Assembly: GCA_951812855.1 (NCBI GenBank)
Contig: OX638337.1
Location: 30,001 to 62,000 of the forward strand
Source: an uncultured Lentisphaeria bacterium
Lineage (GTDB): Bacteria; Verrucomicrobiota; Lentisphaeria; JABSQK01; JAJFLO01
Direction: 5' to 3'
DNA length: 32,000 bases
Shown here: positions 10,988-29,739 of the stretch, in pieces
Layout of the letters: each line of letters opens with the position of its first letter
Numbering within the stretch: position 1 is the stretch's first letter
Made by a program: the position numbers and the translations under genes
The notes under the pieces: generated by a model
Seen by the model: the letters and a program-made list of their open reading frames with translations, nothing else
The model's database searches: none
What the model was told of the DNA's origin: nothing

Positions 10988-11267
10988 TTAATCCACTCTC
11001 CCAAAATAGATTAAGGCACACGTAATGTTAGAATGGCTAATTATTTTGTCGGGTCTCAAAACACGCCAGTATAATCCGTTGTTATAAATGATACCACACC
11101 ATCATTTTTCCCCTATCATTGAATTATCATATTAGAATAATTTTCGCTGTGATCAGTGTACTTAACAGTATCCCTGATTTCAAATTAAAGAGTGAGTGCG
11201 ATGATTTGATTGTACTTTATAACGCTGCTGTCATACCGGTCATCAGCATTCTAATTCTGTGTAGAAT

Positions 11268-11792
11268 CTATTTGATAAGATTCGGCAGAAAATTCACGGC
11301 TTCTGATATACTTCTTACAGAATAGGTTGCGGATTCATTATTGTTTTCACCGATGAAAATTGTTTTACATCCAGCATTTTTTCCAGCGATAATATCTGAG
11401 TCTTTGTCTCCAATCATAAACGATCCGGTGCAGTCAATGGATAATTCATCGGCAGTATCAAGGATTAATTTAGGGCTTGGTTTTCGACACGAACAGTGAT
11501 TTTCAGGTGCATGAGGACAATATTTTATACTGGCGAGATGGACATTGAATGCTTCCAGAATGACAGAGAGTCTTTGATGCTGCAGCCGGACATCGGAATC
11601 TGCCATCATTCCCCTTCCGATCCCGGATTGATTGGAAATGATAACGATCAGATATCCTGAATTTGCCATGTCCGAAAGTGCCCGGCCGGCACCATTTATC
11701 AGCTCGACGTCATCGGGGTCCTTTAAGTAATGTTTATCGATGATGACAGTTCCATCACGATCAAGGAACACAGCTTTTTTTACGTTGTCCAT
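11268..11792 (-). CDS. gmhB: D-glycero-D-manno-heptose 1,7-bisphosphate phosphatase (HAD family)
   Basis: HAD motif I FLDRDGT. Zn-binding CPHAPENHCSCRKP typical of GmhB. Lies next to the heptose kinase gene. Confidence 0.85.
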   Translation of the reverse strand: MDNVKKAVFLDRDGTVIIDKHYLKDPDDVELINGAGRALSDMANSGYLIVIISNQSGIGRGMMADSDVRLQHQRLSVILEAFNVHLASIKYCPHAPENHCSCRKPSPKLILDTADELSIDCTGSFMIGDKDSDIIAGKNAGCKTIFIGENNNESATYSVRSISEAVNFLPNLIK

Positions 11793-11795
11793 TTA

Positions 11796-12800: not shown

Positions 12801-12808
12801 GATATGTT

Positions 12809-14164: not shown

Positions 14165-15000
14165 ATCGTTTTGTGCTTAATGGATTTTAATGACGGAAGT
14201 TTCTTTCGAACATTCATAATTTCTTTTTTTGAAAGTGTTTCACTAATATAACCTTCATTTTCAGCCAGTGAGGAAATTACTGAACCCCAGGGATCAATTA
14301 CCATTGAATGACCGTAGGCTCTGGTATTTATGCTCTCATTTAAACCGCATTGATTGACACCTGCAACATAATACTGATTTTCAATTGCCCTGGCTTTCAG
14401 TAACACTTCCCAGTGTGATTTTCCTGTGAATTGAGTAAATTCAGACGTACAGAGCACAAGATCAGCACCTGTATACGCACGAAACAGTTCGGGGAATCTT
14501 AAATCATAACATATGGTTAAGCCTATGTTCCAGTCATTAACCGAAATTAACATCGGTTTATCTCCTGTATCAAATAATGCACGTTCGTTAATGACAGCCG
14601 TATCATAATTGAGTTGGAACAAGTGAATTTTTTTGTAATTTCCAATAACTCTTCCAGATGCATCGATCACTAATGAGGTATTATACAGCTTCCCGGAATA
14701 AAAAATGGGCAGTCCTCCCCAGACAATGGTTGATTGATACCGAATAGAGAATTCACTTAATTCATCAATAAAGAAATTTTCTTCTTTTGCAAATGTTTTA
14801 ATTTCCGCATAATTTCCACGAAATAATGTATGTTCCGGAAAAATGATCAGATCACACTCTTGATTCCGGCATTCTTCTAATAAACCAATTATTATAGATC
14901 GATTATGCCGGCAGCTGTTTGTTGATGATAATTGGGACAAAAAAATTGATAATAAACTCTGACCGGATTCATCTTTTGCCTTTGTTAAATGTGTTGTCAT
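14158..15000 (-). CDS. Carbon-nitrogen hydrolase (nitrilase superfamily)
   Basis: E-K-C triad contexts IIFPEH, YKKIHLF and LTICYDLRFPE. Overlaps waaA by 7 nt. Confidence 0.8.
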   Translation of the reverse strand: MTTHLTKAKDESGQSLLSIFLSQLSSTNSCRHNRSIIIGLLEECRNQECDLIIFPEHTLFRGNYAEIKTFAKEENFFIDELSEFSIRYQSTIVWGGLPIFYSGKLYNTSLVIDASGRVIGNYKKIHLFQLNYDTAVINERALFDTGDKPMLISVNDWNIGLTICYDLRFPELFRAYTGADLVLCTSEFTQFTGKSHWEVLLKARAIENQYYVAGVNQCGLNESINTRAYGHSMVIDPWGSVISSLAENEGYISETLSKKEIMNVRKKLPSLKSIKHKTIW

Positions 15001-15113
15001 AGTATCTTAGTTCTGAATTATACAAGTTAATCAGGCTTTGAACAGCCCTGTACCGGTGGGTGAATCTGTTTTTCCTCGTTCTTGTAATTAATAACATCAA
15101 ACGGTAATATCGA

Positions 15114-16088
15114 GTGAAATACTACATTAAAAAAGCTAAATCTGTTATTCAGACTGAAATTGACGGTTTAAATACTGTCAAAGATAAATTGGATGACTCT
15201 TTTGTTCAGTTGGTTGATTTATGCCTGAAAACACGTAGAGATGATGGCAAAATCGTGATTTGCGGTGTTGGAAAAAGTGGTTATGTCGGAAGAAAAATAG
15301 CAGCTACACTGTCCAGCACGGGATCGCCGGCAGCATTTCTCCATCCCGTAGAAGCAATGCACGGAGATCTTGGAATCGTTCATCCAAAAGATATTCTGCT
15401 GGCATTCAGTTACAGTGGTGAAACCCATGAACTCCTTACAGTATTACCTGCAATAAAACGATTTAATATACCCATTGTTGCGGTTACCGGAAATCCTGAG
15501 TCAACATTGGCGAACCTGTGTGATTTAGTTGTGTCAGCATCAATCCCCAGGGAAGCCTGCCCATTTAATCAGGCACCCACCACTTCGACGACATGTCAAA
15601 TGGCTTTAGGGGATGCACTTGCGATGGTATTATTAGATACACTGGATTTTACATCTGAAGACTATGGCAAATTTCATCCCGGAGGTTCCATTGGTCTTGC
15701 TGTTACATTGATTGTGAAAGATATGATGCGCCAGTCTGAGCGCTTTGCCGTAACCACAGGAGATACAACGGTCAAAGATGCGTTGGTTTTGATGACCAGG
15801 TGCCGATCCGGTTCTGTCGTGATTATTGATGATAATAAAAAATTATGCGGAATCTTTACAGACGGAGACCTAAGACGGCATATTCAAAAAGAACTGAATA
15901 TATTCGACCATCCTGTCAGTGAGGTTATGACTGAAAATCCAATTTCAATCAACGAAAATATACTTGCCATAGAAATTCTAAAAATATTGGAAACTCGGGA
16001 AATCGATGATATCCCTGTCGTTAACAACAATGACGATGTTGTCGGATTGGTTGATATTCAGGATTTAGCCAAATATAAGCTGATGTAA
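15114..16088 (+). CDS. kdsD: Arabinose-5-phosphate isomerase (SIS domain + tandem CBS domains)
   Basis: SIS motif VICGVGKSGYVGRKIAATLSSTG, followed by a CBS pair. GTG start. Confidence 0.88.
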   Translation: MKYYIKKAKSVIQTEIDGLNTVKDKLDDSFVQLVDLCLKTRRDDGKIVICGVGKSGYVGRKIAATLSSTGSPAAFLHPVEAMHGDLGIVHPKDILLAFSYSGETHELLTVLPAIKRFNIPIVAVTGNPESTLANLCDLVVSASIPREACPFNQAPTTSTTCQMALGDALAMVLLDTLDFTSEDYGKFHPGGSIGLAVTLIVKDMMRQSERFAVTTGDTTVKDALVLMTRCRSGSVVIIDDNKKLCGIFTDGDLRRHIQKELNIFDHPVSEVMTENPISINENILAIEILKILETREIDDIPVVNNNDDVVGLVDIQDLAKYKLM

Positions 16089-16188
16089 ATCCATGGTTGT
16101 AATCTCACCCTTTATGCCTTCTGTACCCGGGACAATTCAACCGTTGAAAAACAGATCAGAAGAACTATCCCGAGTCAAACCAAGGACA

Positions 16189-16214
16189 CCCCTTTGAAAA
16201 TCCCCTTTGAAAAT
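16189..16214. repeat. Perfect 13-bp tandem duplication (CCCCTTTGAAAAT x2)
   Basis: Read directly: 16189-16201 is identical to 16202-16214. It is bracketed by the 7-bp inverted repeat AGGACAC (16183-16189) / GTGTCCT (16218-16224). It sits at the left edge of the island and abuts the DUF262-HNH stop codon. Confidence 0.95.
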
Positions 16215-16222
16215 CGAGTGTC

Positions 16223-17308
16223 CTATTCGCCTGATTTTCGACGGTTGCAATCCTTGCATAGCATCTGGCAGTTTTCGGCAATGGTCTTTCCGCCCTTGGT
16301 CCACGGCGTGATATGGTCGGCTTCCATTTCTTCTAATTTAAAATGCTCATTGCACCTCGCACAGGTGCCCTTTTTCTGCTCATACGCCTCTCGCTTTTGC
16401 TTATCTGTAAAGGCACGGACGTTTAGATGTTTTTCTTCTCCTGTCAGCAGATAGGCATAAATGCCTTTTTTACTGGTTACATCCTCATCTTCCATCAATT
16501 TTGCAACCCGTTTTTCTAAGGCATCCGGGTCGTATGTTTCATCTTTGTAGGTATTGTAAAAGTCTCCCCACCGCAAGCCTTTCATTTCTTTTTTACGGTA
16601 ATTCGGGAAAGTCTTTTGCGTCCACTCAATAACCCTTTGAAAATAATCCCACAGTTTTTTTGCATCGGACTCGTGTTGATGTGTACCCATATACTCTTCT
16701 ATCGTGCCATTGCTGAACCATTTGATGGCTGTCTCCAGATAGTCCTGTCTGATGGGGCTGCCGCTTAGGTATTTGTTACCCACTGGATAAGCAGGACAAT
16801 CCGTTTTGCTGAAATATCTTTTGGCATCGGTTACCCAAGAACCATGATAAACCGCATTTCGCAATTCCTGGTCGGTCAGTTTTTCGCCAGCGATATTGAT
16901 AGTCTTGAACCATTCCAGTTTTTCGCTGTCGGTGCCAGTGCATTGATAAATCATTAATTTATAATTTAAGATTTTTTCTTGTTCGTCATCTTGTAAACTA
17001 TAAAAATATCTTTTTTCAACAGAAAAAACACCCTTTACATATCGGCAAATGGAGACCGTGCGCTGTTGGCCGTCAATAATCTCAAAATTGTCATCACCAC
17101 GCACGGCCCAATACATGACATTTAATGGAAAGCCTTTGTTTATGGTGTCAATAACGGCATCGCGCTGTGCCTCTTTATAGATAAACTCACGCTGATACGG
17201 CGGGCGAATATCCAGCTTGCTGCCGTAGCCCTTAGCGCCGTTTTCCTGGTTGTCTTCATAGCCGTCTGCCAATTCGCGAACGGTTATCTCTTTGAGTGTT
17301 ATATCCAT
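16223..17308 (-). CDS. DUF262 (ParB/GmrSD-N-like, DGQQR motif) - HNH endonuclease fusion; candidate type IV / modification-dependent restriction nuclease
   Basis: IRPPYQREF and IIDGQQRT are the DUF262 signatures. The C-terminus CARCN...ADHITPWTKGG...NCQMLCKDCNRRK is a classical HNH zinc-finger nuclease motif. Confidence 0.8.
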   Translation of the reverse strand: MDITLKEITVRELADGYEDNQENGAKGYGSKLDIRPPYQREFIYKEAQRDAVIDTINKGFPLNVMYWAVRGDDNFEIIDGQQRTVSICRYVKGVFSVEKRYFYSLQDDEQEKILNYKLMIYQCTGTDSEKLEWFKTINIAGEKLTDQELRNAVYHGSWVTDAKRYFSKTDCPAYPVGNKYLSGSPIRQDYLETAIKWFSNGTIEEYMGTHQHESDAKKLWDYFQRVIEWTQKTFPNYRKKEMKGLRWGDFYNTYKDETYDPDALEKRVAKLMEDEDVTSKKGIYAYLLTGEEKHLNVRAFTDKQKREAYEQKKGTCARCNEHFKLEEMEADHITPWTKGGKTIAENCQMLCKDCNRRKSGE

Positions 17309-17441
17309 TTATTTGCCGCTCTTTTTTTGATAGTGTGCTTGACTTTATATCATTGCCAAATTCAGTTCAATTGTTGTTTCACTGCTGGTATCGTCCGCAA
17401 ACTCCTGATTCAAAATATCGGCGATTAACTCGCCACTCTGC

Positions 17442-17834
17442 TCAACGAGCTGCTGTTTTTTTGCGATCTTGTTTTTCAGTTGCAAGCGTTTTTGCCACTT
17501 TACTAAACTCTCTTACTTTGGCAAAGGTCTCAATAATCTGAAGCGTGGCTTTGGTCGCCTCTTTTGATTTGAGAATGGTTGCCAGCATATACAAGCCCTT
17601 TTCGGTAAATGCCTTGGGAAGTTTTACTTTTCCTCCCTTTGAAGTCGCATTTTGCGACTTCAAAGTATTTGTGTCCTTTTGATGAGATAAAATCACATTT
17701 TCTGATTGTATAGCAAGCGCAGGCCGTTCTGTAGTGGTTTTGTAGCTTGAATCGGGGCATGTAGGACAGCGTAGATAAAGGCAAGAATCTGTTCTGGGGC
17801 GGACGATTTTGCGGGTAAGGTTTTTTATTAGCAC
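17442..17834 (-). pseudogene. Chimeric remnant: C-terminal half of an ORF6N/KilA-N-type DNA-binding domain preceded by unrelated sequence
   Basis: SKGGKVKLPKAFTEKGLYMLATILKSKEATKATLQIIETFAKVRE matches the distal half of ORF6N-type domains, but the usual N-terminal half is absent. The ORF ends just after an A7 run (T7 on the plus strand at 17456-17462). A7 to A6 would extend it by about 36 codons, to 17345. A different frame at 17753-17797 encodes a fragment of another protein family. Confidence 0.5.
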
Positions 17835-17861
17835 GGAAATCGGGTGTGAAATTTGCGGTTT

Positions 17862-18794
17862 TTAGACGGAGAAATCTAAGTAGTAGGTTTCATTGTCTAT
17901 CTTGTATATTGTAACTTCTTTGCGACCGTATCTTTCTAAGTCTTCTACTCTGACCCGCTCCCCATATTCTACGCCTAATCTATTTCTAAAATATCTACCC
18001 ATAATGCTATTGTTTTCGGTTGTGTGGATGGCCTTTCCTTGCTCTTGTGCAACAACGCATATCATCGAAATATCATCGTCAGTTAGGATGGTAAATGGCA
18101 CTCCCAAAGGAGGTAAAATATTCCTCTCACGCTCTTCTATGGGAACAGGAATGTAAGCTTGGTCTAGGTTTCTGCCTTTTCTTTGCCCCCAATTTAGCCC
18201 AGCCTTTTCATGTACTTTGCCTTCCCGATTTTTTTGAGTCATGTAAAGAGGAAGGGTAACGCTAGGCAATTCTTTATTGCTTATTGCAGGATAATCTATT
18301 TTCTCTGGAATGGAAAAATGTTGATCTAGTTCGTGGGCATTACAAAATGCAGTTCTTTTGCGTGTTTTCTCTATAAATTTGAATGCTTTTTGCGGGTCTG
18401 TTATCGCCAAAACTTCTTGTTGTTGGGAGGGTAAAAATCCGTTGCTTGTGTAGTTCGCAGATCCAACATAGGCCGCGATAGGATTTTTTTCATTACTAAA
18501 AAGATAAACTTTGGCATGAACAGATGGCGAGCAAATTAAATAGTCGCAAACAAAATTTTTGTATATTTTGCATACTTGACAGAATCCTAAATGCTTTGGT
18601 CTGTCTATAGCGTTTTTTAAGGACATGCCAATCGTTAAGTGTATTTTTGCCTCGATATTATTGTTCTTAAGTTCTAGTAAATGTTTATCTGCCATAGATG
18701 GAGACGCATAACCAGAGACGATATCTAGTTTTGTGGCTTCATTGTTAAGAAATGGTTCAAGTAAAATTTTTGTAAATAAGTTTTCACTTAACAT
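17862..18794 (-). CDS. Type II restriction endonuclease, NgoFVII/BfiI-like (N-terminal PLD/HKD nuclease + C-terminal DNA-recognition domain)
   Basis: PLD-type HxK...GSxN motif in VHAKVYLFSNEKNPIAAYVGSANYT. The C-terminal LNWGQRKGRNLDQAYIPV...TDDD...MGRYFRNRLGV...YGR pattern is typical of the NgoFVII C-terminal domain. The start overlaps the C5-MTase stop by 7 nt. Confidence 0.78.
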   Translation of the reverse strand: MLSENLFTKILLEPFLNNEATKLDIVSGYASPSMADKHLLELKNNNIEAKIHLTIGMSLKNAIDRPKHLGFCQVCKIYKNFVCDYLICSPSVHAKVYLFSNEKNPIAAYVGSANYTSNGFLPSQQQEVLAITDPQKAFKFIEKTRKRTAFCNAHELDQHFSIPEKIDYPAISNKELPSVTLPLYMTQKNREGKVHEKAGLNWGQRKGRNLDQAYIPVPIEERERNILPPLGVPFTILTDDDISMICVVAQEQGKAIHTTENNSIMGRYFRNRLGVEYGERVRVEDLERYGRKEVTIYKIDNETYYLDFSV

Positions 18795-19888
18795 GGTGCG
18801 ATGCCGTATTTTTGCAGTGCCGTGAGGATTGCCCGGCAGATGACTTCTACGCCTTTTGGTGGCACTGCCATGCCGATTTGGCGGCGGACACTTTCTTTAC
18901 CACCGATAAATTCAAAGTTGTCGGGAAAAGTTTGTAGCCTTGCCCTTTCTCTATTTGTCAACGCTCTCGGTTCTTGCCAATGATAAACATGCGTTCCACC
19001 TCCACCAGAGCCTGTGACAGTGTAGGCAGGTTTGGATGGATCAAGTCTTTTGTAGATTTGACTGATAGCCGCCTTGCTTTTTAATTTTAATTTTAATTTT
19101 TCAGGAAGTTGGGCATTGAATGCGTTTTGTCCTGGTTTTATATGTTTTAGCCTTTCTATGACTTGCTTTGACTGCGTTGTAAAATCGTGGTTTAGGGCAT
19201 TGGGTTGTAGAGGCGGTGATTCTAGTGCTTCCTTACAGGTTATTATTTTCGTTTCGTTCGGTTGTGGGTGTTTGAAATCTATTTTTATGTCGTCTCTAAA
19301 TCCGACAATTATGATGCGATGGCGGCGTTGCGGCACGCCGTAATACTCAAATTTGTAAAGATTAGTGTGAATGTTGTAGCCACATTCTTGGATAGCACAA
19401 CAGATCCTTTCAAATGTGTCTTTGTTGTCGGCAGAGAGAAGGCCGCCGACATTTTCGGCTATAAAAAATTGAGGCTGGAAATGTTCAAGTGCTCTTACGC
19501 TGTGCATATACAAGCTCCCGTATTTTCCTTGAATACCTTTTTGCTCGCCTACTACGCTGAAATCGTTACATGGAAAGCCGAAAAACAAACCGTCAATAGG
19601 GTTAAAATCATCAAACTCTAGCGTGGAAATGTCAGCACATCGAACTTTACTGTTCTCTATTTTGATGTTTTTTCGGAAAGTTTCGCAAGAGTCTTTATGG
19701 TAGTCACAAGCCCAGATGTGGGACATTTTATAGGACTTGTATTGTGCTTTTTCTGCGCCTAATGCCATTCCACCAGGCCCACTGAATAGCTCGCCTATTT
19801 TGAAGGTGTTTTTGACAGATTGTTCTTGACTGCCTTGATAATCTTCAGTTAGTTCTTTGATTGAAATTTCTTTAAGCGTTATTTCCAT
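18788..19888 (-). CDS. DNA (cytosine-5)-methyltransferase
   Basis: All canonical C5-MTase motifs occur in order: FSGPGG (I), GFPCNDFS (IV), ENV in FIAENVGGL (VI), QRRHRIIIVG (VIII), TFPDNFEF, RQIGMAVPP (X). It has an unusual N-terminal extension of about 30 aa. Confidence 0.92.
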   Translation of the reverse strand: MEITLKEISIKELTEDYQGSQEQSVKNTFKIGELFSGPGGMALGAEKAQYKSYKMSHIWACDYHKDSCETFRKNIKIENSKVRCADISTLEFDDFNPIDGLFFGFPCNDFSVVGEQKGIQGKYGSLYMHSVRALEHFQPQFFIAENVGGLLSADNKDTFERICCAIQECGYNIHTNLYKFEYYGVPQRRHRIIIVGFRDDIKIDFKHPQPNETKIITCKEALESPPLQPNALNHDFTTQSKQVIERLKHIKPGQNAFNAQLPEKLKLKLKSKAAISQIYKRLDPSKPAYTVTGSGGGGTHVYHWQEPRALTNRERARLQTFPDNFEFIGGKESVRRQIGMAVPPKGVEVICRAILTALQKYGIAPC

Positions 19889-19891
19889 TTT

Positions 19892-20499
19892 TTATATTTT
19901 TTGATTTTGAGACTCATCTTTTTTTAAGGTAAAACTCCCTTTTGTCATTCTATCAGTAAAGTAATTGCCTTTTAATTCGTTATCTGCTAACTCCAAAGTA
20001 ACGGTGCCATAATGTTTGATTAAATCATCTGCTATATTGTCTGGATTATTAAAATAATTATAAATAAGCTCATCTTTATTATTCTCTGCTCGGATAAGAC
20101 AATTAATAACCACACTTCTGGATTGTTTAAAATTAGCGTTGATAGTAATATCAGTTAAAGTTTGTTTAATAGTAATCTTTACTTTAAATTTTTTGTTTTC
20201 AACATCTTCCTTATAAGTGCTTCTTCCTTATAAGTGCTTCTTCCTTCTCCGCTCCATTTTCCGCTAAAGTTTGGGATTTGTTCTTTGATGATAGGTAGAT
20301 GGAAAAACCACTCTGACAAGCAATTAAAAATAACAAAATGATTTATCAACAAACTAAAAGTAAAAATAGTTAAAGCCGTTGATATATCGTTTAAAAAAAT
20401 ATTTAAAAACCCAGTTAAGCAAAAAGTAACTAAAAAAGACAGAACAAGGGAGAGTGTGAAAGCATAATACTCTACTTTAAAATTTTTGAGATATTTCAT
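19892..20499 (-). pseudogene. CBASS effector, 2TM + beta-strand-rich C-terminal domain (Cap15 / S-2TM-beta-like), frameshifted by a 17-bp tandem duplication
   Basis: The two track ORFs 20179..20499 (two hydrophobic helices, then FSGKWSGEGRSTYKE) and 19892..20113 are joined into one 591-nt (196-aa) ORF with no stop if one copy of the 17-bp repeat is removed. The start overlaps the CD-NTase stop as ATGA. Confidence 0.7.
20207..20240. repeat. Perfect 17-bp tandem duplication (TTCCTTATAAGTGCTTC x2; 6 further matching nt follow)
   Basis: Read directly: 20207-20223 is identical to 20224-20240, and 20241-20246 (TTCCTT) repeats the unit start. 17 is not a multiple of 3. Confidence 0.95.
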
Positions 20500-21353
20500 C
20501 CTGTTACATACTCAATGACTTTTTTGAGAAATTGATGGCAATCTGTTAAATTCCATTTTGTGCTTTCATCACCAAATAAAGGTTGAATCTCATTCTGACA
20601 TTTTAAATTTTTTAAATCATTATCTCGTAACCAATTTAAACAATTAGCCAATAGAGAAGTAAAATAACTTTCATTAAATTTATCATTTGGCACATTGTAA
20701 ATTAAACATTCTACAAAGTAGGAAGGTGCTAAGCTTTCATCTATCCAATTTTCTTTAATCATCTGCCTTTTAATATTTTTAAAAATTCGCACCATCTTTT
20801 TATAATTTCCTGTTCTGCTATTCTTTTCTTCTCCATTTTGTTTATGGATTTTAGGATAGTTAATAATCTCACCTTTTGAGGATTGTATTTTTATTCCCTC
20901 ATAGTATTGCTTTTCTCCACGGTCATAATGATTTTTGTATTGAAAACAAGGTACTAAATCTACATTTTGCCAATGCTCACCTCTTAAATGTAATTCAATA
21001 CATTTATTTTTTTCTTTGTAAGAAATTCTTTCTCTGTTTAAAACACTTTTAATTTCATTTCTGAGTGCTTCTTGAGTGTAACTGCTTGGATTGTTATAAA
21101 TACTTGGATTGTAGTTATAGTTATAGTAAAAAGTCTCATTAAACTGTAAAATAATATCTATGTCACCATCAGCCCAGATATTCGTATTATTGGCAACAGA
21201 TCCTTGTAAATAAATTTCAAAATTATTTGAATTATTAAAACAAACACCTCTAAAAATATCCTTTACTTTATCGTAAGTTGCTGTATTTTTATTGAGCTGA
21301 ACACGGTTTGCCCAAGTTGCTAATTGTTGTTCTTGTATTGTTATATTTGTCAT
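20496..21353 (-). CDS. cGAS/DncV-like nucleotidyltransferase (CD-NTase, SMODS-type) of a type I CBASS
   Basis: Pol-beta NTase signature LQGSVANNTNIWADGDIDIIL (GS...DxD). Third acidic residue context NVDLVPCF. SMODS-like APSYFVECLIYNVP. Followed by a translationally coupled 2TM effector gene. Confidence 0.8.
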   Translation of the reverse strand: MTNITIQEQQLATWANRVQLNKNTATYDKVKDIFRGVCFNNSNNFEIYLQGSVANNTNIWADGDIDIILQFNETFYYNYNYNPSIYNNPSSYTQEALRNEIKSVLNRERISYKEKNKCIELHLRGEHWQNVDLVPCFQYKNHYDRGEKQYYEGIKIQSSKGEIINYPKIHKQNGEEKNSRTGNYKKMVRIFKNIKRQMIKENWIDESLAPSYFVECLIYNVPNDKFNESYFTSLLANCLNWLRDNDLKNLKCQNEIQPLFGDESTKWNLTDCHQFLKKVIEYVTG

Positions 21354-21358
21354 TATAA

Positions 21359-21449
21359 CCTCTTGTTTTTGATGATGATTCTAAAATATGGAGGATCGGG
21401 AGAAAATTTTCCACAAATGCAAGCAAGATCTTAGATGTCAGTGATTTTC
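21359..21449. repeat. 91-bp direct repeat, copy A (leader of the CBASS operon)
   Basis: Gap-free alignment with 23034-23124 at a constant offset of 1675 gives 84/91 identical by my base-by-base count. Contains the 10-bp perfect palindrome GAAAATTTTC at 21402-21411. Confidence 0.9.
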
Positions 21450-21454
21450 ATTTT

Positions 21455-21934
21455 TTAGTCTTTATTATATTTAGAAAGATCAATATCTTTCCGTTTTAGC
21501 ATTTCAAAAGTATCGACACAATCAATATCAAATTCTTTACAAATATTTGGTATTGAAGCTTTTTTAGCACCTTTCCCTAAAAAATTTTCGTGAGTGACAA
21601 TTACAATATTATATTCTTTAGCAACACACACTAACAAATAATCAGCTACATTTAGAAATTTACCAGCCTGTTCTGAGCTATAGTTTTTATAAATATAGTC
21701 AGATAACATTTGTTGGTTAGTTAATGGTTTATCATAAGAAAAAATTTTTACCGCCTTAACAAGATTCTCTAAAGTATCTTTATCTTTACCTTTGCGGATT
21801 TCGTCTTTAACTTCTTGTAAAGTAAAAATATCTTCTTCTTCTTTTAAGTATTCCCAAAAACTGGAAACTATCTTTTCTTGATAATATCGTCTATAAGCCT
21901 CAATGAATACGTTTGTATCTAAAAGATATCTCAT
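21455..21934 (-). CDS. DUF4411 PIN-like nuclease-fold protein
   Basis: The N-terminus MRYLLDTNVFIEAYRRYY...FWEYL is the PIN-like / DUF4411 signature. The ATGA overlap with the upstream ImmA gene suggests translational coupling. Confidence 0.75.
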   Translation of the reverse strand: MRYLLDTNVFIEAYRRYYQEKIVSSFWEYLKEEEDIFTLQEVKDEIRKGKDKDTLENLVKAVKIFSYDKPLTNQQMLSDYIYKNYSSEQAGKFLNVADYLLVCVAKEYNIVIVTHENFLGKGAKKASIPNICKEFDIDCVDTFEMLKRKDIDLSKYNKD

Positions 21935-23031
21935 AAAGGCAAGCCAAGTTGGCGATAATATTTATTAAAAGTCTCTCCCTTCAGCCCCGTAAGACTATAG
22001 GCATCTCTGTAAAGAGTTTCGCCTGCTAAAGTAGAATGAACTACACGAAGTAAAAAAGTCTCTCCGCCTGCTTTAAATGGGGCAGTACGATAATAATCGC
22101 CTCCACTGCCTTTAGATTTTATTCTTTGTATATTTTCTATACAATCCTTCCATTGCCTTTGAAATTCATATTCTCTAATTAAACTGGATTGTTTTGCTTT
22201 TATCAAAACAACAAAAACACTTATTTTAAATTTTTTTGCTATCCCCTCTATATTGTCAATATTAAAATATTCTTTTTTTAATTCCTTTGCAGGTAATAAA
22301 ATTTCTGATGCTATCTTATTACATGTTTTCTCCGTTTGTAAATGATATGTTCCGTCTAAAGCACTTTCATTTAAAAATAAGTGTGCCAGTTCATGGATAA
22401 GAGTAAAAATTTGACTGGATTTATAATCCCTGCCATTAATAAAAATTGCAGGAGCATATTCATCAAACAAACAAAATCCCTTAAATTCCTCTCTGTCCAA
22501 TCCTCTGCTGGTATTGCTCCCCACCACTCCATTTCTTATAATTAAAAATTCTTTGTCATCGAGTTTCTTTATTAAATTACTTAAAAAATCTTCTTGTGTC
22601 CTGCTCTCACTTCGTAATTTATCTATATCTAATAATCTTTTTATTTCAGTAATTATTTCTTTTTCACCTGTATATTTATAAGAAAAAATTTTATCCTCGC
22701 CATCTTGTATCTTTTGTTCTCTTAACCAATTTTGTTTTCTTTGAGAATCATAAATAGTTTCTAAAAGGTTAATACCTGGTTTTTCTAATTCTTTATTGTT
22801 TATTGTTCTAAAATCAGGAATAGGCAATTCTTCTTTTGGTGGCTCGGAAAGGAATAAATAACCATAAGGAACATAAAATTTTTCAGCTATTTTTTTTATT
22901 TGTTTTTCGGTAGGTTGAGACTTTCCTTCTTCCCAATCAGGATATTTACGAGAAGCAATTTTTTTTACAGCCTCTTCTAAACTGAGTTCAGCCCGCTCTC
23001 TTGCCCATTTTAATAATTCTGGATTAACCAT
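21931..23031 (-). CDS. XRE-type HTH fused to an ImmA/IrrE (COG2856) zinc metallopeptidase
   Basis: N-terminal LKWARERAELSLEEAVKKI is HTH-like. HEXXH zinc site in LIHELAHLFL. 366 aa. Confidence 0.8.
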   Translation of the reverse strand: MVNPELLKWARERAELSLEEAVKKIASRKYPDWEEGKSQPTEKQIKKIAEKFYVPYGYLFLSEPPKEELPIPDFRTINNKELEKPGINLLETIYDSQRKQNWLREQKIQDGEDKIFSYKYTGEKEIITEIKRLLDIDKLRSESRTQEDFLSNLIKKLDDKEFLIIRNGVVGSNTSRGLDREEFKGFCLFDEYAPAIFINGRDYKSSQIFTLIHELAHLFLNESALDGTYHLQTEKTCNKIASEILLPAKELKKEYFNIDNIEGIAKKFKISVFVVLIKAKQSSLIREYEFQRQWKDCIENIQRIKSKGSGGDYYRTAPFKAGGETFLLRVVHSTLAGETLYRDAYSLTGLKGETFNKYYRQLGLPL

Positions 23032-23033
23032 AG

Positions 23034-23124
23034 CCTTTTGTTTTTGATGATGATTCTAAAATCAGGAGGATTGGGAGAAAATTTTCCACAAATGCAAGCA
23101 ACATCTTAGATGTCAGTAATTCTC
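23034..23124. repeat. 91-bp direct repeat, copy B (leader of the ImmA-DUF4411 operon; overlaps the last 4 codons of the GHKL gene)
   Basis: See copy A. The palindrome GAAAATTTTC lies at 23077-23086. Confidence 0.9.
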
Positions 23125-24987
23125 TTTCTTAATAATATCTAAAAAAGTTTTATTACGTGCTCGAGCGTTAGAGATAACCTCTTCTGCAGATATTACATAA
23201 AGGTACAGAGATAATTTTTCATAGTATTTGAAATAAATCTTTTCCCTGGTTGAGAATAACAATTTGAAATCATCATTCTTTAGTTTTTGCTCAAAATCAT
23301 CACCTATATTGGTAATCAAGTAATACCAAACGTTGTTTAACTTTTCTGCTCCTTTGAAGCTGTTAGCATATTCTCTTATCTCCTCTAATCCAGCGAATTT
23401 CTTTTTTCCATCTATATTTAAAGCCTTGAGTTCTATAATGACCGCATTATAATTGCCTTCTTCTTTCTGGAAAAATATTGAAATGTCCGGTCTGCCCCGG
23501 TCTTGATTATTTGATTGAGGGAATATTTTTTTTAAACTTTCTTTTATACTTTTTTCGCTGGCTGCATAACTATAACTCATAAATTTATCGTCAATAAGCC
23601 AAATATTATTTTCTGCAGGACCAAGATATTTTTTACTTCCTTTTTCGGTATCTGAACCTCTCTCCATCAATAAATTATGCAGCACCTTTTCCTTTCCGTT
23701 GTGCTTTTGACTTAAAGTTTCTAATTCTGATATTATTTTATCTCGCATTAAAATATATTCTGTCAGTTCTTGACCTGCTAATGTGCTTGCTTTTTTAAGC
23801 AATTCATTACTTCTATATTTTTTACCTTCCACTTCCTTTCTGAAAGATTGTTTTTCTTTTAAAAATTTTTCTTCGGCTTGTTTAATAATATTTTCTTGTT
23901 TGATCAAGCCTCCTAAATAATTTATATCTCCAAGATAATCTACTAAATGTAAATGTTTACGTTTAATTCTTTTAATTATTTCTTTATACTCGTCTTCTAA
24001 TTCTGGAAATTTTTCTTTTAAAATAGTTGCAATCTCCTGATCTAATCCTTGATTGATCATCTCCCAGGAAAAATCGCCAAACAATGTATCTTTTGCTTGA
24101 TTAGGGTTCATGGAAAAATCATTCCTCTCATTATCTACTTTATCATCTAAAAAATCAGAGGATAATAAAAAGATGATTTGACATTCATCTATCGGATTAA
24201 TGGAAAAATTTTTATTTTTATCTTTAAACCTACAAACTGTTCGGGAATTAGCACAGTAGAATCCTCGCATTTTGTTCAAATCCTTTAAACTCAATTCTTC
24301 TATGGAGTAATTTAGAATAAATTCAACATCCTGTTCTCTTGTATCTTTTATGTTGAATGAATGTTCTTCAAAAGTCGGTAAATCGGACGTTTTAATATTA
24401 GCTTCGTCATTGCTGTCTTTATTTTCTAAAGTAATGACAATGTTGGAATCCCTCTTTAAATACAATAACGGCAACAAATGACTATATAGTTTATCTCTCA
24501 CTGCTTGAATGGAATAAAAACTATTTATCTTTGGGTCAATACCATTGAATTCTATTGTAGTTTTATTGTTTTTTATATTGTTTTTTTCAACTTTTGTTAT
24601 ATGCTTTTCTTCTTCAAATTTTTCGCTAAAATTTATCTTGACGAGTTTTTTCTCTTCTTTTACTAAACTTTCTATCTTAATATCTGAGAAAATTTTTAAG
24701 AAGGAAATTCTTCCTATTCCTTTACATCCTAAATCTATTTTTTCTTTCGTGCCGTATTCACAAAAAGACTCAATATTTTTATCTGTAAAACCCTTGCCAT
24801 TATCAATGACAGAAAGTTTTTCTAAACAGGTTTTTTCTTGCTGTAATGATAATTCATTATAATATTCTATACGGATTTTTATATCAGTTGCTTCTGCTTG
24901 TATGGAATTAGTAACTGCCTCTTGCAGAACGGTCAACGGGTTAACTTTTTTAAGATTAGAAACCATTCTAGGGAGATTGATTTTCAT
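23113..24987 (-). CDS. GHKL (HATPase_c_3 / MORC-MutL-like) ATPase fused to a C-terminal PD-(D/E)xK nuclease-like domain
   Basis: Bergerat-fold motifs occur in order: N-box EAVTNSIQA, G1 VIDNGKGF, G2 GCKGIGRISF. A long Lys/Glu-rich middle region follows. C-terminal GRPDISIFF then about 18 aa then VIIELK gives a PD...ExK arrangement. Confidence 0.7.
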   Translation of the reverse strand: MKINLPRMVSNLKKVNPLTVLQEAVTNSIQAEATDIKIRIEYYNELSLQQEKTCLEKLSVIDNGKGFTDKNIESFCEYGTKEKIDLGCKGIGRISFLKIFSDIKIESLVKEEKKLVKINFSEKFEEEKHITKVEKNNIKNNKTTIEFNGIDPKINSFYSIQAVRDKLYSHLLPLLYLKRDSNIVITLENKDSNDEANIKTSDLPTFEEHSFNIKDTREQDVEFILNYSIEELSLKDLNKMRGFYCANSRTVCRFKDKNKNFSINPIDECQIIFLLSSDFLDDKVDNERNDFSMNPNQAKDTLFGDFSWEMINQGLDQEIATILKEKFPELEDEYKEIIKRIKRKHLHLVDYLGDINYLGGLIKQENIIKQAEEKFLKEKQSFRKEVEGKKYRSNELLKKASTLAGQELTEYILMRDKIISELETLSQKHNGKEKVLHNLLMERGSDTEKGSKKYLGPAENNIWLIDDKFMSYSYAASEKSIKESLKKIFPQSNNQDRGRPDISIFFQKEEGNYNAVIIELKALNIDGKKKFAGLEEIREYANSFKGAEKLNNVWYYLITNIGDDFEQKLKNDDFKLLFSTREKIYFKYYEKLSLYLYVISAEEVISNARARNKTFLDIIKKENY

Positions 24988-25040
24988 AATTTATAACCTT
25001 TTTTGCTGGCACAGTTCAATGATAAATGGCGCAATGTCTT

Positions 25041-26036
25041 TCATTTTTGCGAGTCTCTGTTGCGGATGATGATTCTATTATAGATATTACGTCCATTTAT
25101 TTTTGTTAAGCATTCATACCCAATCCATCTTGCTGAGTTTGCTATCCCCAAAATCTCAAACTGATCCGGATTATATTTATCCATAAAGGTAATGGGTACG
25201 CCCATAGCACCGGCGTAGTCCATAGGGATTTCTTTTACCTTACTCACTTCAATGGCATCGTAGTTATCGTATGTTGGATAGTCGGCAGGCGTGTATTTTT
25301 TGTAGAGGATAAGTTCTTCATGACGTTTTTGGTGGTCTAAGTTGGTAAACCAGTTGATACTTCCTTTACTAAAATACTTCGTGCCGTTTTCTATTTTCTT
25401 CCGTGATTCGGTTTTTATATCGTAGTTGTCAGGGACGCGAAACCATTTTGTGCCGCCGTTATCATAACCGAGCCAGATTTTATTTTCTTTTATGAGCTTA
25501 AAAATTTCCTTGTAAGTGATTGCATTTTGATCTCCGATTATCACAAACTTCTTATCGTATTCAACAAGCTGCGACACATATTCACGAAACAGTGAGAACG
25601 GCGGGTTGGTAACGACAATATCGGCTTGCTCTAACAGCTTAATTGCCTCTGGACTGCGAAAATCGCCATCGCCTTTGAAGGCTTTAACACCTATCTCCTC
25701 CGGATCAGGTACTTTGTTGTGGTTTTTGTCGCCTTCGTATTCCAAATAGATGGCCTGTTCACAGTCGTGCTGACTGAATAAATCCATATTTTGATTTTTA
25801 TAGCAGGCGGTGATGAGTTTTTTTAAGCCGAATGCCTCAAACCCGTATGAAAAATAATGAAAAAAACCGCTGATACGCGGGTCATCGCAGTTGCAGTAAA
25901 CCGTTTTGTTTTTGAAATGATGCCAGTAGTGTTTCAGCTCATTTTCAATATCGGACAGTTGCGTATAAAACTCATCTTTTTTGGTGTTTTTGGCGGCGTG
26001 TAGATTGGTGTTTTTAGTTGCCTTGCTCATGGTCAT
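25041..26036 (-). CDS. N6-adenine DNA methyltransferase, EcoRI-methylase-like family
   Basis: Catalytic motif IV VVTNPPFSLFREY (NPPF). N-terminal KDEFYTQLSDIE...VYCNCDDP, and C-terminal YDNYDAIEVSK...MGVPITFMDKYNP, as I recall for this family. Confidence 0.78.
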   Translation of the reverse strand: MTMSKATKNTNLHAAKNTKKDEFYTQLSDIENELKHYWHHFKNKTVYCNCDDPRISGFFHYFSYGFEAFGLKKLITACYKNQNMDLFSQHDCEQAIYLEYEGDKNHNKVPDPEEIGVKAFKGDGDFRSPEAIKLLEQADIVVTNPPFSLFREYVSQLVEYDKKFVIIGDQNAITYKEIFKLIKENKIWLGYDNGGTKWFRVPDNYDIKTESRKKIENGTKYFSKGSINWFTNLDHQKRHEELILYKKYTPADYPTYDNYDAIEVSKVKEIPMDYAGAMGVPITFMDKYNPDQFEILGIANSARWIGYECLTKINGRNIYNRIIIRNRDSQK

Positions 26037-26470
26037 ATAGCGATGTTGGCAGATTGTATGTCAAGTGCAGGCCGTTAGCAAGAAGCAAGGTTAAGGGAAG
26101 TTGTTGTCTTGCCTTCTCTCCCCCCTTTTTGGTTGGCTGTCGCAATTGTTACTATTGACATTTTGAGTTAAATACTTTCTAATTTTCTTTATTCGTCAAT
26201 CACTATTTTACAAAGAGTAAACATAATAAACAAGCCAGTTTTCAATATTGTTAAATTTAGATTTTTTTCTTGACACTACATACATGTCTTAAAATAAATA
26301 TGTTTTAAGTACTTATGATTCGAACACTCCTTTATCATTTTCCAAATGGAATTGACGAATTGTTAAGCGATTGTGATTCTGTGCTTAAAAAGTTATTCGA
26401 CTTAAATGAGCTTTACAGTCATTGTAAAAAAGTTCTTACACGTTGATTTCTAAATACTCGACCCGTCAGA

Positions 26471-27580
26471 TTATAGATAGTGTCTGTCGACTCGGTTACC
26501 AATCGAACAAATAATCTCGTAGGATATCGTATTTTTTGCATCGGCCCACTCGTTGACTGGTATTGAATTGCCCAGACATTCGACTTGGTCTCCAATCGCT
26601 GCTTCCGGGACATGAGAAATTTGAATCGTTGTATAATCCATTGAAATTCTGCCTAAAACGGGACATCGCTTTGCCTGGAGATAAAATGCACCATTATTAG
26701 AAATGGCGATTGGTACACCATCAGCATAGCCGGCTGAAACCGTTCCCACTCGAGTGGGGCAGGGTGTTTTGTAGGTTTTGCCATAGCCGATTTCGGTTTG
26801 CGGGGGTAATATTCGTATTGCGACTAAGCGGGCTTTAACGGTGAAAACCGGGGATAGTTTAATGGACTGAGCACCCTGAAAATCAAATACGCCATATAAA
26901 TTGATTCCGGTTCTCACCATAGAAAATGGGGGTTTACAGGATTCCGGAATATTATTAATACCATCGCTATTGGCTATATGAATCCATTTAAAAGTAATAT
27001 TTTTTTGGTCGAGTAATTCAAGGAGTGTCTTTATTTTTTTTATTTGTTCCAGAGAAAAATCCCGATTATTATATGCCTGGGGAAAATGAGTATAGATTCC
27101 AGTGCAGTTTAAGCCGGGTAATTTAATTGTATTCTCAATTATTTTTTGACTGTCATTGTATAAAATTCCCAACCGCCCCATTCCGGTATCTATAAGATAA
27201 TGGCATTCGAGAATTTTGTTCTGCCTTACAGCCTCACTGCTTAATTTTACGGCAGTTTGCAGATCTGTAATTGGTGCAATAAACCCCATTTCCACGATCA
27301 TTGGAATTTCATCATCAATGATACCTCCGAGCAGTTGTATCGGTTTACCAAAATGAGAAATTGATATTGCTTCTTTAACATCAGCAACCCCGAAAGAATA
27401 AATTCCAGTGTCGGACAGTGCCTTTGCAATTTCAACTGCTCCGAGACCGTAGGCGTTTGCTTTCAGTACTGCCATTACTTTCAAAGGCGATACTTTATCT
27501 GATATTAGGTCAAAATTTGATTTAATTTTGTTTAGGCTGATTTCCACCCAAACTCGTGAAGCAGCAGTTTTATTTGTCAT
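26471..27580 (-). CDS. alr: Alanine racemase
   Basis: PLP-lysine motif AVLKANAYGLG. 369 aa. Overlaps nth by 4 nt. Confidence 0.9.
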   Translation of the reverse strand: MTNKTAASRVWVEISLNKIKSNFDLISDKVSPLKVMAVLKANAYGLGAVEIAKALSDTGIYSFGVADVKEAISISHFGKPIQLLGGIIDDEIPMIVEMGFIAPITDLQTAVKLSSEAVRQNKILECHYLIDTGMGRLGILYNDSQKIIENTIKLPGLNCTGIYTHFPQAYNNRDFSLEQIKKIKTLLELLDQKNITFKWIHIANSDGINNIPESCKPPFSMVRTGINLYGVFDFQGAQSIKLSPVFTVKARLVAIRILPPQTEIGYGKTYKTPCPTRVGTVSAGYADGVPIAISNNGAFYLQAKRCPVLGRISMDYTTIQISHVPEAAIGDQVECLGNSIPVNEWADAKNTISYEIICSIGNRVDRHYL

Positions 27581-28245
27581 GAAACATAATCAGATTTATA
27601 CGGATAATTGCAGAAATCAAAAACTCTGCAGTCGGTACACAGTGGTTTTCTTGCCTTGCATGTATAGCGGCCGTGAAGAATTAAGTAGTGATGTGCTGGT
27701 TTAAGGTGAGCTCCGGGAATTTTTTTCAACAATATTTTTTCGGTAGCTTCGGGTGTTTTTGCGTCTGCTAATCCCACCCTGTTTGCGACTCGAAAAATGT
27801 GGGTATCGACGGCTAATGCAGGCTGATCATACAAAACATTCAGGACAACATTTGCTGTTTTTCTTCCAATGCCGGGCATTGATTGTAAATCCTCTCTATT
27901 ATCCGGCACGACATTATTGAATTTTTCTTTAATTAACTGACAAATCCCAATTATTGATTTGGCTTTATTTTTATACAGCCCGATCGAGCGAATGCTGTTG
28001 CGAATCCTGTCTTCTCCAAAGTTCAGATAATCTTCTGCTGTCCTGCAATGTTTCCATAATCCGGGAGTTGCTTTATTTACAGCTTTGTCTGTGCACTGTG
28101 CTGAGAGCACAACGGCGATGACTAAGTCTAACGGTGTCGACCAGTTTAATTCGGATTCCGGGACGATGTAAGAACTCAGCGTGTCAAAAAAATTCTTTAT
28201 TCTGGCTGAATTTAACGGTTTCGGTTTTTTTACTTTGACAGTCAT
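27577..28245 (-). CDS. nth: Endonuclease III (DNA glycosylase/AP lyase)
   Basis: HhH-GPD element LPGIGRKTANVVL. C-terminal 4Fe-4S cluster CKARKPLCTDCRVFDFC. Confidence 0.92.
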   Translation of the reverse strand: MTVKVKKPKPLNSARIKNFFDTLSSYIVPESELNWSTPLDLVIAVVLSAQCTDKAVNKATPGLWKHCRTAEDYLNFGEDRIRNSIRSIGLYKNKAKSIIGICQLIKEKFNNVVPDNREDLQSMPGIGRKTANVVLNVLYDQPALAVDTHIFRVANRVGLADAKTPEATEKILLKKIPGAHLKPAHHYLILHGRYTCKARKPLCTDCRVFDFCNYPYKSDYVS

Positions 28246-28276
28246 TGAGTTATCATGGTATTGATTATGTGCCAGT

Positions 28277-29611: not shown

Positions 29612-29739
29612 CGATTTTCTATTAATTTATACGTTGTTATGAATTACAAATATTAGATATGTATCTAGTTTATCCGGTTGAAATAATTTCAGAATTGTCA
29701 GAGTGTCTTGCCGGTTACCTACAATATTTTCGGTAATTG

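Follow-up and report, generated by a model that had tools for sequence, protein, structure and literature searches.

A chromosomal anti-phage island in an uncultured Lentisphaeria bacterium, best read as one restriction–modification pair pried apart

Immune genes lodged inside another immune locus have a described precedent in prrC, which is embedded inside the type Ic EcoprrI locus (PMC12707154). Here we analyse a 32,000-nt stretch of DNA (hereafter the window) from a small-genome Lentisphaeria (Victivallales-like) bacterium, in which a 10.4-kb cluster of defence genes occupies positions 16089–26470, between kdsD and alr. We consider it probable that this cluster is a chromosomal anti-phage island formed from a single restriction–modification (R–M) pair whose two genes have been pried apart. 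As in EcoprrI, extra immune genes would then stand between a modification gene and a restriction gene, an arrangement to be compared also with that of a homolog of the island's GHKL nuclease (P0004, below). Unlike EcoprrI, the host here would be a two-gene, type II-like pair, with several complete systems embedded in it rather than one gene.

With other defence islands the locus shares co-oriented genes tightly packed between housekeeping genes, an atypical composition and alleles that vary between strains. It differs from them in apparently lying inside one R–M gene pair, with scars of earlier junctions, in having no mobile-element gene or tRNA anchor, and in being carried by both of the strains sampled. 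The island is ordinary in kind, being built from known types of system; what is unusual is that several of them seem to sit inside one R–M pair, that the scars can still be read, and the strain dynamics. The assembly of defence islands without a mobile-element enzyme is poorly documented, and this locus offers a readable record: an M–R pair, normally overlapping, whose genes now stand 7.7 kb apart, scars left at junctions by a second copy of that pair, a cassette bracketed by repeats, alleles that are mosaic between two co-existing strains, and a strain-specific, potentially reversible knock-out of an abortive-infection effector. No current view is overturned, and the value of the locus lies in being a worked example from which hypotheses can be drawn.

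Two described protein families are close to the GHKL nuclease of the island. The paraMORC3 proteins are GHKL ATPases with a C-terminal domain of restriction-endonuclease fold and occur in R–M operons (Iyer, Abhiman and Aravind 2008, PMC2292703), and VcSduA, a Vibrio cholerae Shedu nuclease of the GHKL type, has demonstrated anti-phage activity (PMC12137116). The analysis flags two sizeable, experimentally uncharacterised families: the GHKL nucleases, and the DUF262-HNH proteins that accompany an EcoRI-type methylase.

The outer methylase and nuclease genes

The frame of the island is formed by four features.

15114–16088, plus strand: KdsD, left flank
16223–17308, minus strand: DUF262 (ParB/GmrS-like NTPase) plus HNH endonuclease, intact; putative restriction (R) gene of the split pair
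25041–26036, minus strand: EcoRI-family N6-adenine DNA methyltransferase, intact; putative modification (M) gene of the split pair
26471–31557, minus strand: Alr-Nth-OadB-OadA, right flank

All open reading frames (ORFs) of at least 100 aa with a family match within 16223–26036 lie on the minus strand, and all are defence genes. This is the picture drawn by an earlier note, made from the sequence without database searches, which placed a minus-strand island between kdsD and alr-nth-oad, and our ORF and domain searches agree with it. Its domain calls (two methyltransferases (MTases), a phospholipase D-type (PLD) restriction endonuclease (REase), DUF262-HNH, a GHKL-nuclease, ImmA plus PIN, and CBASS, a cyclic-oligonucleotide-based anti-phage signalling system) were all reproduced by Pfam and PADLOC, except the GHKL protein, which only Pfam recognised. 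An ORF6N remnant and a break in the Cap15 gene, both described below, were missing from its gene list.

The EcoRI-type MTase gave full-length matches to Pfam EcoRI_methylase (4.9e-132) and to the PADLOC MTase_II model PDLC03297 (2.7e-124), contains the NPPF motif and ends in ...YNRIIIRNRDSQK, followed by the stop codon. The DUF262-HNH protein matched Pfam GmrSD_N (5.3e-18) and HNH (3.5e-13) and the PADLOC REase_II model PDLC03418 (2.1e-146), and carries a DGQQR motif. Its family counts more than 8000 homologs, almost all about 360 aa long, which are about 70% identical across phyla.

We surveyed the linkage of the two genes in 48 IMG/VR loci retrieved with the DUF262-HNH protein and in 80 loci retrieved with the MTase. 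An EcoRI-family MTase adjoined DUF262-HNH on the same strand in 44 of the 48 loci and lay upstream of it in 41. In these 41 the M stop and the R start were separated by at most 14 nt in 24, often with ATGA or TAATG overlaps, by 55–128 nt in 9, by 419 nt in 1 and by 1.06–1.24 kb in 7. With the MTase as query the nuclease was adjacent in 38 loci and followed a gap of 0.4–1.0 kb in 16, giving a downstream nuclease in 54 of 80; the remaining 26 were without a nuclease. In the window the two genes keep the order and strand seen elsewhere, but stand 7732 nt apart. Their G+C content at third codon positions (GC3) is the highest of the window, 0.470 for the MTase and 0.475 for DUF262-HNH. Because of the adjacency elsewhere, the conserved order and strand and the shared GC3, we conclude from the sequences that the EcoRI-type MTase and DUF262-HNH are probably two halves of one R–M module and that everything between them was probably inserted.

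Several points weigh against this conclusion. The pairing of M and R is statistical, not obligate: in one locus (L216) a 74%-identical DUF262-HNH gene comes after an intact ORF6N gene and has no MTase within 10 kb of it. The characterised nucleases that combine DUF262 with a His-Me nuclease, GmrSD, BrxU and SspE, are modification-dependent or modification-sensing (PMC12707154), and the type II REase class of DUF262-HNH is suggested by a PADLOC model together with gene context. The MTase lies directly upstream of the GHKL gene both in the window and in L084, the locus with the closest GHKL homolog outside the sibling strain, so it might serve the GHKL protein instead. We found no close relative in which the site is empty or simpler, the junction scars described below are short (12–25 and 26 codons), and the order of events cannot be reconstructed.

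Some of these points would also fit plain accretion at a hotspot, whereby the cassettes arrived independently, the MTase and HNH genes are unrelated neighbours, the HNH protein is a solitary type IV enzyme and the AT-rich part of the island is one later insertion, as in the view of the earlier note. Accretion would agree with a composition step that is real, with the type IV or modification-sensing nature of the characterised DUF262 nucleases, with the HNH gene that lacks an MTase in L216 and with the failure to find a recombinase or att site. We nevertheless judge it unlikely, given that MTase and HNH genes neighbour each other in 44/48 and 54/80 loci and have a common GC3 of 0.47, that MTase 3'-end and HNH 5'-end scars bracket the AT-rich block, and that a 101-nt repeat around ImmA-PIN means that this block did not come from a single event.

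As to function, the window protein resembles GmrSD, BrxU and SspE in carrying an HNH-type nuclease C-terminal to a DUF262 domain that has the DGQQR motif, and GmrSD_N is recognised in it. By analogy with these enzymes the DUF262 domain probably makes the nuclease NTP-dependent. Unlike them, it has a classical HNH domain (PF01844), not DUF1524, and its family is nearly always found beside an adenine methylase. This usual neighbour argues against DUF262-HNH being modification-dependent. Judging from the families concerned, both R–M pairs of the island, the outer one and the C5-methylase/NgoFVII pair embedded in it, would methylate host DNA (to N6-methyladenine and 5-methylcytosine, respectively) and cut unmodified incoming DNA.

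The AT-rich block and its junctions

Between the outer genes lie, in transcription order, a GHKL nuclease, an HTH-ImmA/PIN pair, a type I CBASS and a C5-methylase/NgoFVII pair, with a decayed ORF6N gene preceding the R gene. The first three modules make up an AT-rich block. In 500-nt windows the G+C fraction was 0.40–0.44 over 16.0–19.75 kb, 0.27–0.33 over 19.75–25.0 kb and 0.39–0.41 over 25.0–26.0 kb. The segment 19892–25005 has 29.2% G+C, against a mean of 39.2% (range 36–42%) in 152 windows of 5.1 kb across the 32 kb and a minimum elsewhere of 36.4%. At a resolution of 80 nt, the left step falls at about 19820, within the first 26 codons of the C5 MTase ORF, and the right step coincides with the 53-nt spacer between the EcoRI-type MTase stop and the GHKL start. 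Codon usage agrees, with three classes of GC3 among the island genes: 0.18–0.30 in Cap15, CD-NTase, PIN, ImmA and GHKL (0.26 in GHKL), 0.33–0.39 in the NgoFVII REase and C5 MTase, and about 0.47 in the outer pair; core genes have 0.30–0.42.

The steps that the earlier note had estimated from single lines of sequence, at about 19.9 and 25.0 kb, are thus borne out, and its view that the block is nested has gained from the finding that it lies between a normally adjacent M and R and is bracketed by scars of an AT-rich pair. Its GC-richer surrounding island survives as richer flanking blocks but not as one unit, since the outer genes (GC3 0.47), the C5-MTase/NgoFVII pair (0.33–0.39) and the decayed ORF6N are distinct; this shell would presumably be the older part.

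It has to be asked whether the low G+C merely follows from the amino-acid or codon bias of the protein families, in which case the block could be as old as its neighbours. The GHKL homolog of L084 is also AT-rich (27%), as such a bias would predict; the L084 genome, however, has about 30% G+C, so that its GHKL gene matches its host. In the window the low GC3 of 0.18–0.30 is common to genes of five unrelated families and gives way to host values at the edges of the block, and an HNH-type scar has 31% G+C against 46% in the resident copy. We therefore disfavour family bias as very improbable.

The edges and the interior of the block contain the following features.

19811–19888, minus strand: putative nuclease 5'-end scar, the first 26 codons of the C5 MTase ORF, at the left edge of the block
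21355–21455, minus strand: direct repeat copy A, 101 nt; GHKL 3' codons plus putative MTase 3'-end scar
23030–23130, minus strand: direct repeat copy B, 101 nt; GHKL 3' end plus putative MTase 3'-end scar
24988–25040, minus strand: 53-nt spacer at the right edge of the block; a GC-rich 36 nt, then AAAAAAGGTTATAAATT, then the GHKL start codon

The two copies of the 101-nt repeat are 90% identical and bracket ImmA-PIN. Copy B comprises the 3' end of the GHKL gene followed by codons for ...DFRIIIKNKRL, continues into the ImmA start codon and contains the palindrome GAAAATTTTC. Copy A begins with the last seven codons of a GHKL gene (KMKITDI, stop), followed by ...YFRIIIKNKRL and a TAA stop that overlaps the CD-NTase ATG (TAATG), the same coupling as at M/R junctions. 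The C-termini of EcoRI-family MTases read YHRIIIKNKRL in the second MTase of L084 (MT2), YMRIIIKNKRI in L172 and YNRIIIRNRDSQK in the window, each at the stop codon. Shuffling the AT-rich block 300 times produced the scar motif once. Both repeat copies would thus carry the 3' end of an AT-rich EcoRI-family methylase gene.

At the left edge the N-terminus of the C5 MTase, MEITLKEISIKELTEDYQGSQEQSVK, aligned by BLASTP with that of DUF262-HNH, MDITLKEITVRELADGYEDNQENGAK, with 13/26 residues identical and 20/26 positive (E 1e-5), and the same 5' stretch also aligned with the resident HNH 5' end as DNA. This HNH-type stretch has 31% G+C against 46% in the resident HNH 5' end, and the C5 MTase domain proper begins only at residue 28–29 according to Pfam and PADLOC. 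At the right edge, AAAGGTTATAA before the GHKL start gives a 12-nt match to the 3' end of the third MTase of L084 (MT3); this may be a third methylase 3'-end scar, too short to rely on. Two further resemblances to the HNH start were considered: MKINL at the GHKL start was rejected, being native to the GHKL family, and MTNITIQE at the CD-NTase start was too short to judge.

The AT-rich block therefore appears to have at its borders remnants of two AT-rich genes, an M gene represented by its 3' end and an R gene represented by its 5' end. Because two M 3'-end scars (before ImmA and before CD-NTase) and one R 5'-end scar were found, we suggest that the block came from a low-G+C donor in which the three modules already lay between the genes of an AT-rich version of this M...R pair, so that it would represent what a second such module had enclosed. 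The block is composite, with ImmA-PIN bracketed by the 101-nt repeat, and since the repeat surrounds ImmA-PIN the block did not arise from a single event. The island would accordingly grow and change by recombination, not through a mobile-element enzyme. None of the sequence marks of a mobile genomic island was found: a tRNA scan of the stretch gave none and an Rfam scan no family, no island gene matched an integrase or transposase family in Pfam, PADLOC or NCBIfam, no att site was seen, and a repeat search returned no convincing repeats flanking the island. The earlier note had likewise seen no integrase, transposase, tRNA or convincing flanking repeat, and these scans agree with it, with the addition of the internal 101-nt repeat.

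A possible donor type is provided by L084, whose GHKL protein is 54% identical to that of the window. The order at 6813–15437 of this locus is MTase-GHKL-ORF6N-MTase-AriA-like ATPase-MTase-DUF262-HNH. Its three MTase genes, taken together with the 140 nt upstream of each, are 91–94% identical, the MTase and GHKL genes overlap by 4 nt, and the second effector is an AriA/OLD-like AAA_15 ATPase (PADLOC AriA 4e-68). By analogy, an array of this kind may have been the donor of the AT-rich block before internal MTase copies were deleted. An 84-nt piece of the L084 ORF6N gene is duplicated upstream of a RhuM gene.

Other genes were found at the M/R junction in further loci. A Bro-N gene (PADLOC PDC-S13) occupies it in the seven loci with 1.06–1.24-kb gaps (examined directly or through clustering), and a TIR gene (ThsB-like; PADLOC PDC-S66, 2.9e-40) lies between MTase and DUF262-HNH in L265 (5104–5865) and L285 (5058–5819), its start overlapping the M stop in both. 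Proteins of 250–338 aa lie exactly at the junction in L258 (4969–5796), L272 (5128–6144) and L294 (4872–5624). These three had no Pfam or PADLOC match and are candidate uncharacterised defence genes.

Because the methylase copies of L084 head different effectors, the window carries M 3'-end scars, and Bro-N, TIR and unmatched genes occur at the junction elsewhere, it is possible, though we put it forward only tentatively, that EcoRI-family MTase/DUF262-HNH pairs act as a portable docking platform for immune genes. Capture would then occur exactly at the coupled M-stop/R-start junction, by recombination between methylase copies. If docking is real, such islands could grow, shuffle and travel without an integrase, and the proteins of L258, L272 and L294 would be candidate new defence genes; the M/R junction could serve as a search handle for others. 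Four loci (L240, L246, L276 and L278) have two tandem EcoRI-family MTase genes preceding one DUF262-HNH gene.

The embedded systems

The genes between the outer pair are as follows.

17345–17834, minus strand: decayed ORF6N (KilA-N-like), ORFs 17442–17834 and 17345–17485, frameshifted
17862–18794, minus strand: NgoFVII-type PLD restriction endonuclease, overlapping the C5 MTase by 7 nt
18788–19888, minus strand: C5 cytosine DNA methyltransferase, M gene of the second R–M pair
19892–20499, minus strand: Cap15 two-transmembrane CBASS effector, split into ORFs 20179–20499 and 19892–20113, frameshifted
20210–20243, minus strand: 17-bp tandem duplication in Cap15, a GAAAGAAGCACTTATAAG-type unit GAAGAAGCACTTATAAG present twice (20210–20226 and 20227–20243)
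20496–21353, minus strand: CBASS CD-NTase (oligonucleotide cyclase), intact; called by PADLOC and NCBIfam
21455–21934, minus strand: DUF4411 PIN-domain nuclease, putative toxin, overlapping ImmA by 4 nt
21931–23031, minus strand: HTH plus Peptidase_M78 (ImmA/IrrE), RmrA-like antitoxin or regulator, from Pfam and PADLOC
23113–24987, minus strand: GHKL ATPase, transducer and C-terminal PD-(D/E)xK-like nuclease domain, 624 aa, paraMORC3-like

The GHKL protein matched Pfam HATPase_c_3 (1e-12); PADLOC gave no match, Shedu included. Among 33 homologs the residues E23, N27, D62, G64, G66, G90, G92, D501, E519 and K521 are invariant. An AlphaFold2 model (pLDDT 85) had as its top Foldseek matches the ATPase-transducer modules of SMCHD1, MORC, GyrB and MutL (E 3e-12 to 1e-8). 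The strand-helix pattern of the C-terminal domain in the full model fits the restriction-endonuclease fold; modelled alone (pLDDT 80), the domain gave no significant match in the PDB, the weak matches including PD-(D/E)xK restriction enzymes. Weak matches to HSDR_N_2, NucS_C or UL24 occurred in a few of the 33 family members. The protein thus has a GHKL domain with its ATP-binding motifs, an S5-like transducer and a conserved C-terminal D...ExK, and its homologs occur in R–M neighbourhoods or standalone, sporadically, all of which matches the description of paraMORC3, membership being judged by architecture. In architecture the window protein resembles VcSduA, which joins a GHKL ATPase at its N-terminus and a PD-(D/E)xK nuclease at its C-terminus in one chain; unlike it, none of the 33 members had the Shedu signature domain DUF4263 (SduA) at E≤1. 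With no DUF4263 and no significant result from the C-terminal fold search, a Shedu identity was rejected. The predicted mode of action is that ATP-driven dimerisation gates DNA cleavage.

The GHKL family is large, with 1361 cluster representatives at E≤1e-30 (about 1400 clusters at 50% identity). R–M genes lay within 4 kb in 38 of the 77 GHKL loci with neighbouring ORFs and were of many types: C5/N6 MTase fusions, HsdS, HsdR, type ISP, type III Res, type IIG and DUF262. One homolog (P0004, 49% identical, within 3931–12821 of L213) lies between hsdS and hsdR of a type I R–M operon, and another (P0008; locus L214) stands alone among housekeeping genes. Downstream of the L213 homolog are genes for SoFic, a C5 MTase and a HinP1I-type REase.

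These neighbourhoods bear on the idea that the working pair is MTase plus GHKL, a paraMORC3-type R–M system in which the methylase protects the host and DUF262-HNH is independent or redundant. It would be in keeping with the position of the MTase directly upstream of GHKL in the window, in the sibling L083 and in L084, with the presence of paraMORC proteins in R–M operons (PMC2292703), with the R–M genes within 4 kb in 38/77 GHKL loci and with recombinant patches in both genes on strain comparison. The composition break nevertheless falls exactly between the two genes (GC3 0.47 vs 0.26), and distant GHKL homologs lie beside varied R–M types or none, with no constant partner. The chances of this pairing seem to us low, and we prefer DUF262-HNH as the partner of the MTase.

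The HTH-ImmA protein matched Pfam Peptidase_M78 (3.4e-13) and HTH_19 and, in PADLOC, RmrA (1.9e-17; at least 12 RmrA models) and capP (2e-12). It thus has the HTH plus M78 peptidase content of a RosmerTA antitoxin. Its neighbour matched Pfam DUF4411 (3.1e-31) and PIN (3.8e-6) and PADLOC PDC-M11A (5.9e-7). Domain content and gene order are as in RosmerTA; unlike there, the DUF4411 PIN protein matches none of the PADLOC RmrT toxin models. In the proposed mechanism, triggering of the M78 peptidase/HTH protein would release or activate the PIN RNase.

Alternatively, HTH-ImmA could be a CapH/CapP-like regulator of CBASS, instead of or besides an antitoxin, and the 101-nt repeat upstream of both operons a shared promoter-operator. 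The capP match would suit this role, and so would the presence, upstream of each operon, of a shared 101-nt sequence that includes the palindrome GAAAATTTTC and a −10-like box, TAGAAT; on the other hand, the best PADLOC matches are to RmrA, ImmA overlaps the PIN toxin gene as is typical of toxin-antitoxin pairs, and the repeat is explained by gene scars, the palindrome occurring only inside it. A role in CBASS regulation is in our view doubtful, more so than either accretion or an MTase-GHKL pair. The palindrome GGAAAATTTTCY was considered as an operator and rejected, having no independent support and being found only inside both repeat copies. IMG/VR searches with ImmA and with CD-NTase returned no relatives.

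The CD-NTase matched the PADLOC Cyclase model PDLC00788 (2.3e-74) and NCBIfam NF053871 (1e-62). Both halves of Cap15 gave PADLOC 2TM effector matches, and the C-terminal half matched Pfam Cap15_CD_rec (4.6e-11). CD-NTase is followed by Cap15 with a 4-nt overlap and without Cap2/Cap3 or ancillary genes, the gene content and order of a type I CBASS with Cap15. Unlike in such systems, the window Cap15 is frameshifted, so that the window strain has no intact CBASS effector ORF. The sibling strain has a single copy of the 17-bp unit and an intact Cap15, and removal of one copy from the window sequence in silico gave a 196-aa Cap15 identical to the sibling's; CD-NTase is intact and 100% identical in both strains. 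Because Cap15 is frameshifted here and intact in the sibling, CBASS is predicted to be off in the window strain only, inactivated by the duplication. Reversal of the knock-out by slippage is conceivable. On infection CBASS would produce a cyclic nucleotide that acts on Cap15, leading to membrane disruption and cell death, which should not be possible in the window strain.

The C5 MTase matched Pfam DNA_methylase (3e-76) and PADLOC MTase_II (1.4e-114), and the REase matched Pfam RE_NgoFVII (1.2e-32) and RE_NgoFVII_C (4.2e-35). A PLD REase with a B3-like DNA-binding domain beside a C5 MTase is the domain content and gene order of an NgoFVII-type R–M system; unlike in that system, the window C5 MTase has a foreign 26-residue N-terminus.

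The ORF6N remnant matches its Pfam profile at positions 49–86 only, its N-terminal half being unrecognisable, and matches PADLOC PDC-S05 (2.2e-24). A tblastn search with the intact L084 ORF6N placed its two parts in different frames. The gene is decayed in the window strain and its sibling alike.

Strain comparison and minor features

The sibling strain L083 is represented by a 1.94-Mb circular contig of metagenome ERZ18545485, on which all ten genes recur in the corresponding place. It is 98.8% identical to the window over 18.9 kb and is the only close relative. Its composition is the same non-uniform mosaic, not the uniform one that would have spoken against the earlier note's view. A KdsD search retrieved 80 genome loci, the best of them in Lentisphaeria/Victivallales metagenome-assembled genomes at 62% identity (51–62% for the nearest); in the retrieved loci neither alr nor an island gene lay within 10 kb of kdsD. 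Unrelated housekeeping genes lie downstream of kdsD in those genomes, which give no information on the empty site.

Differences between the two strains form a mosaic and are concentrated in ImmA (94.1% DNA identity), GHKL (94.9%) and the EcoRI-type MTase (two patches, 13 differences). GHKL residues 1–127 and 401–507 are identical between the strains, whereas residues 508–624 have a synonymous divergence (dS) of 0.26 and residues 128–400 a ratio of nonsynonymous to synonymous divergence (dN/dS) of about 1.1; ImmA residues 286–330 have a dS of 0.52, against 0–0.012 in core genes. Because of this high synonymous divergence, the GHKL and ImmA segments were most plausibly imported and did not arise by local mutation. 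By contrast, 16089–21500 differs by only 2 single-nucleotide polymorphisms and the 17-bp indel, where 19 differences would be expected at the rate of the core (P 7e-6), the flanking core genes being about 0.35% diverged. This suggests that 16089–21500 was shared between the strains more recently than the core genomes, by recent exchange or a sweep. The island thus appears to be a recombination hot spot. At the GHKL 3' end (23113–23135) a 1-nt indel changes the C-terminus from ...IIKKENY in the window to ...IIRKRITDI in the sibling, each followed by a stop codon.

Two alternate contigs of ERZ18545485 (L001 and L002) match the window at 100% identity and break off at the edges of the island, at about 16471 and 26408. 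We rejected these ends as a sign of variability, an assembly effect being more likely since the strains are near-identical over 16.1–21.5 kb; the assembler probably could not phase the near-identical interior of the island.

Neighbouring island genes overlap by 4 or 7 nt or are separated by 3–101 nt, and all have one orientation, which is compatible with long transcripts from a promoter of the MTase. The candidate region for such an array promoter is listed below.

26037–26470, minus strand: 434-nt spacer upstream of the EcoRI-type MTase, candidate array promoter

Within it, TTGCTA-17-TACAAT at 26081–26053 is a weak match of consensus type, and counts from a promoter and terminator scan did not exceed those in shuffled sequence. 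A 25-nt motif (AACGGCCTGCRCTTG..ATACAATC, minus strand) occurs upstream of the EcoRI-type MTase (26052–26076) and within the degraded 5' part of ORF6N (17704–17728), 22 of 25 positions being identical; among 216 loci the sibling strain alone was found to have it too. A promoter or operator common to both sites would be one possible reading, a further junction scar another. The MTase-alr spacer also contains a 43-aa ORF on the plus strand (26315–26446), without a family match, that is called in the sibling contig too.

In the window together with 6 kb of L002 (about 38 kb), GCGC and CTAG are depleted (observed/expected 0.34 each), and GCSGC, GAATTC and AATT are not; this sample is too small and the test too unspecific to link the depletion to any R–M system. 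Outside the island, the carbon-nitrogen hydrolase gene at 14158–15000 is intact in the window (280 aa), and its sibling counterpart (L083 19963–20804) is split into ORFs of 150 and 131 aa by a 1-nt deletion corresponding to window position 14628.

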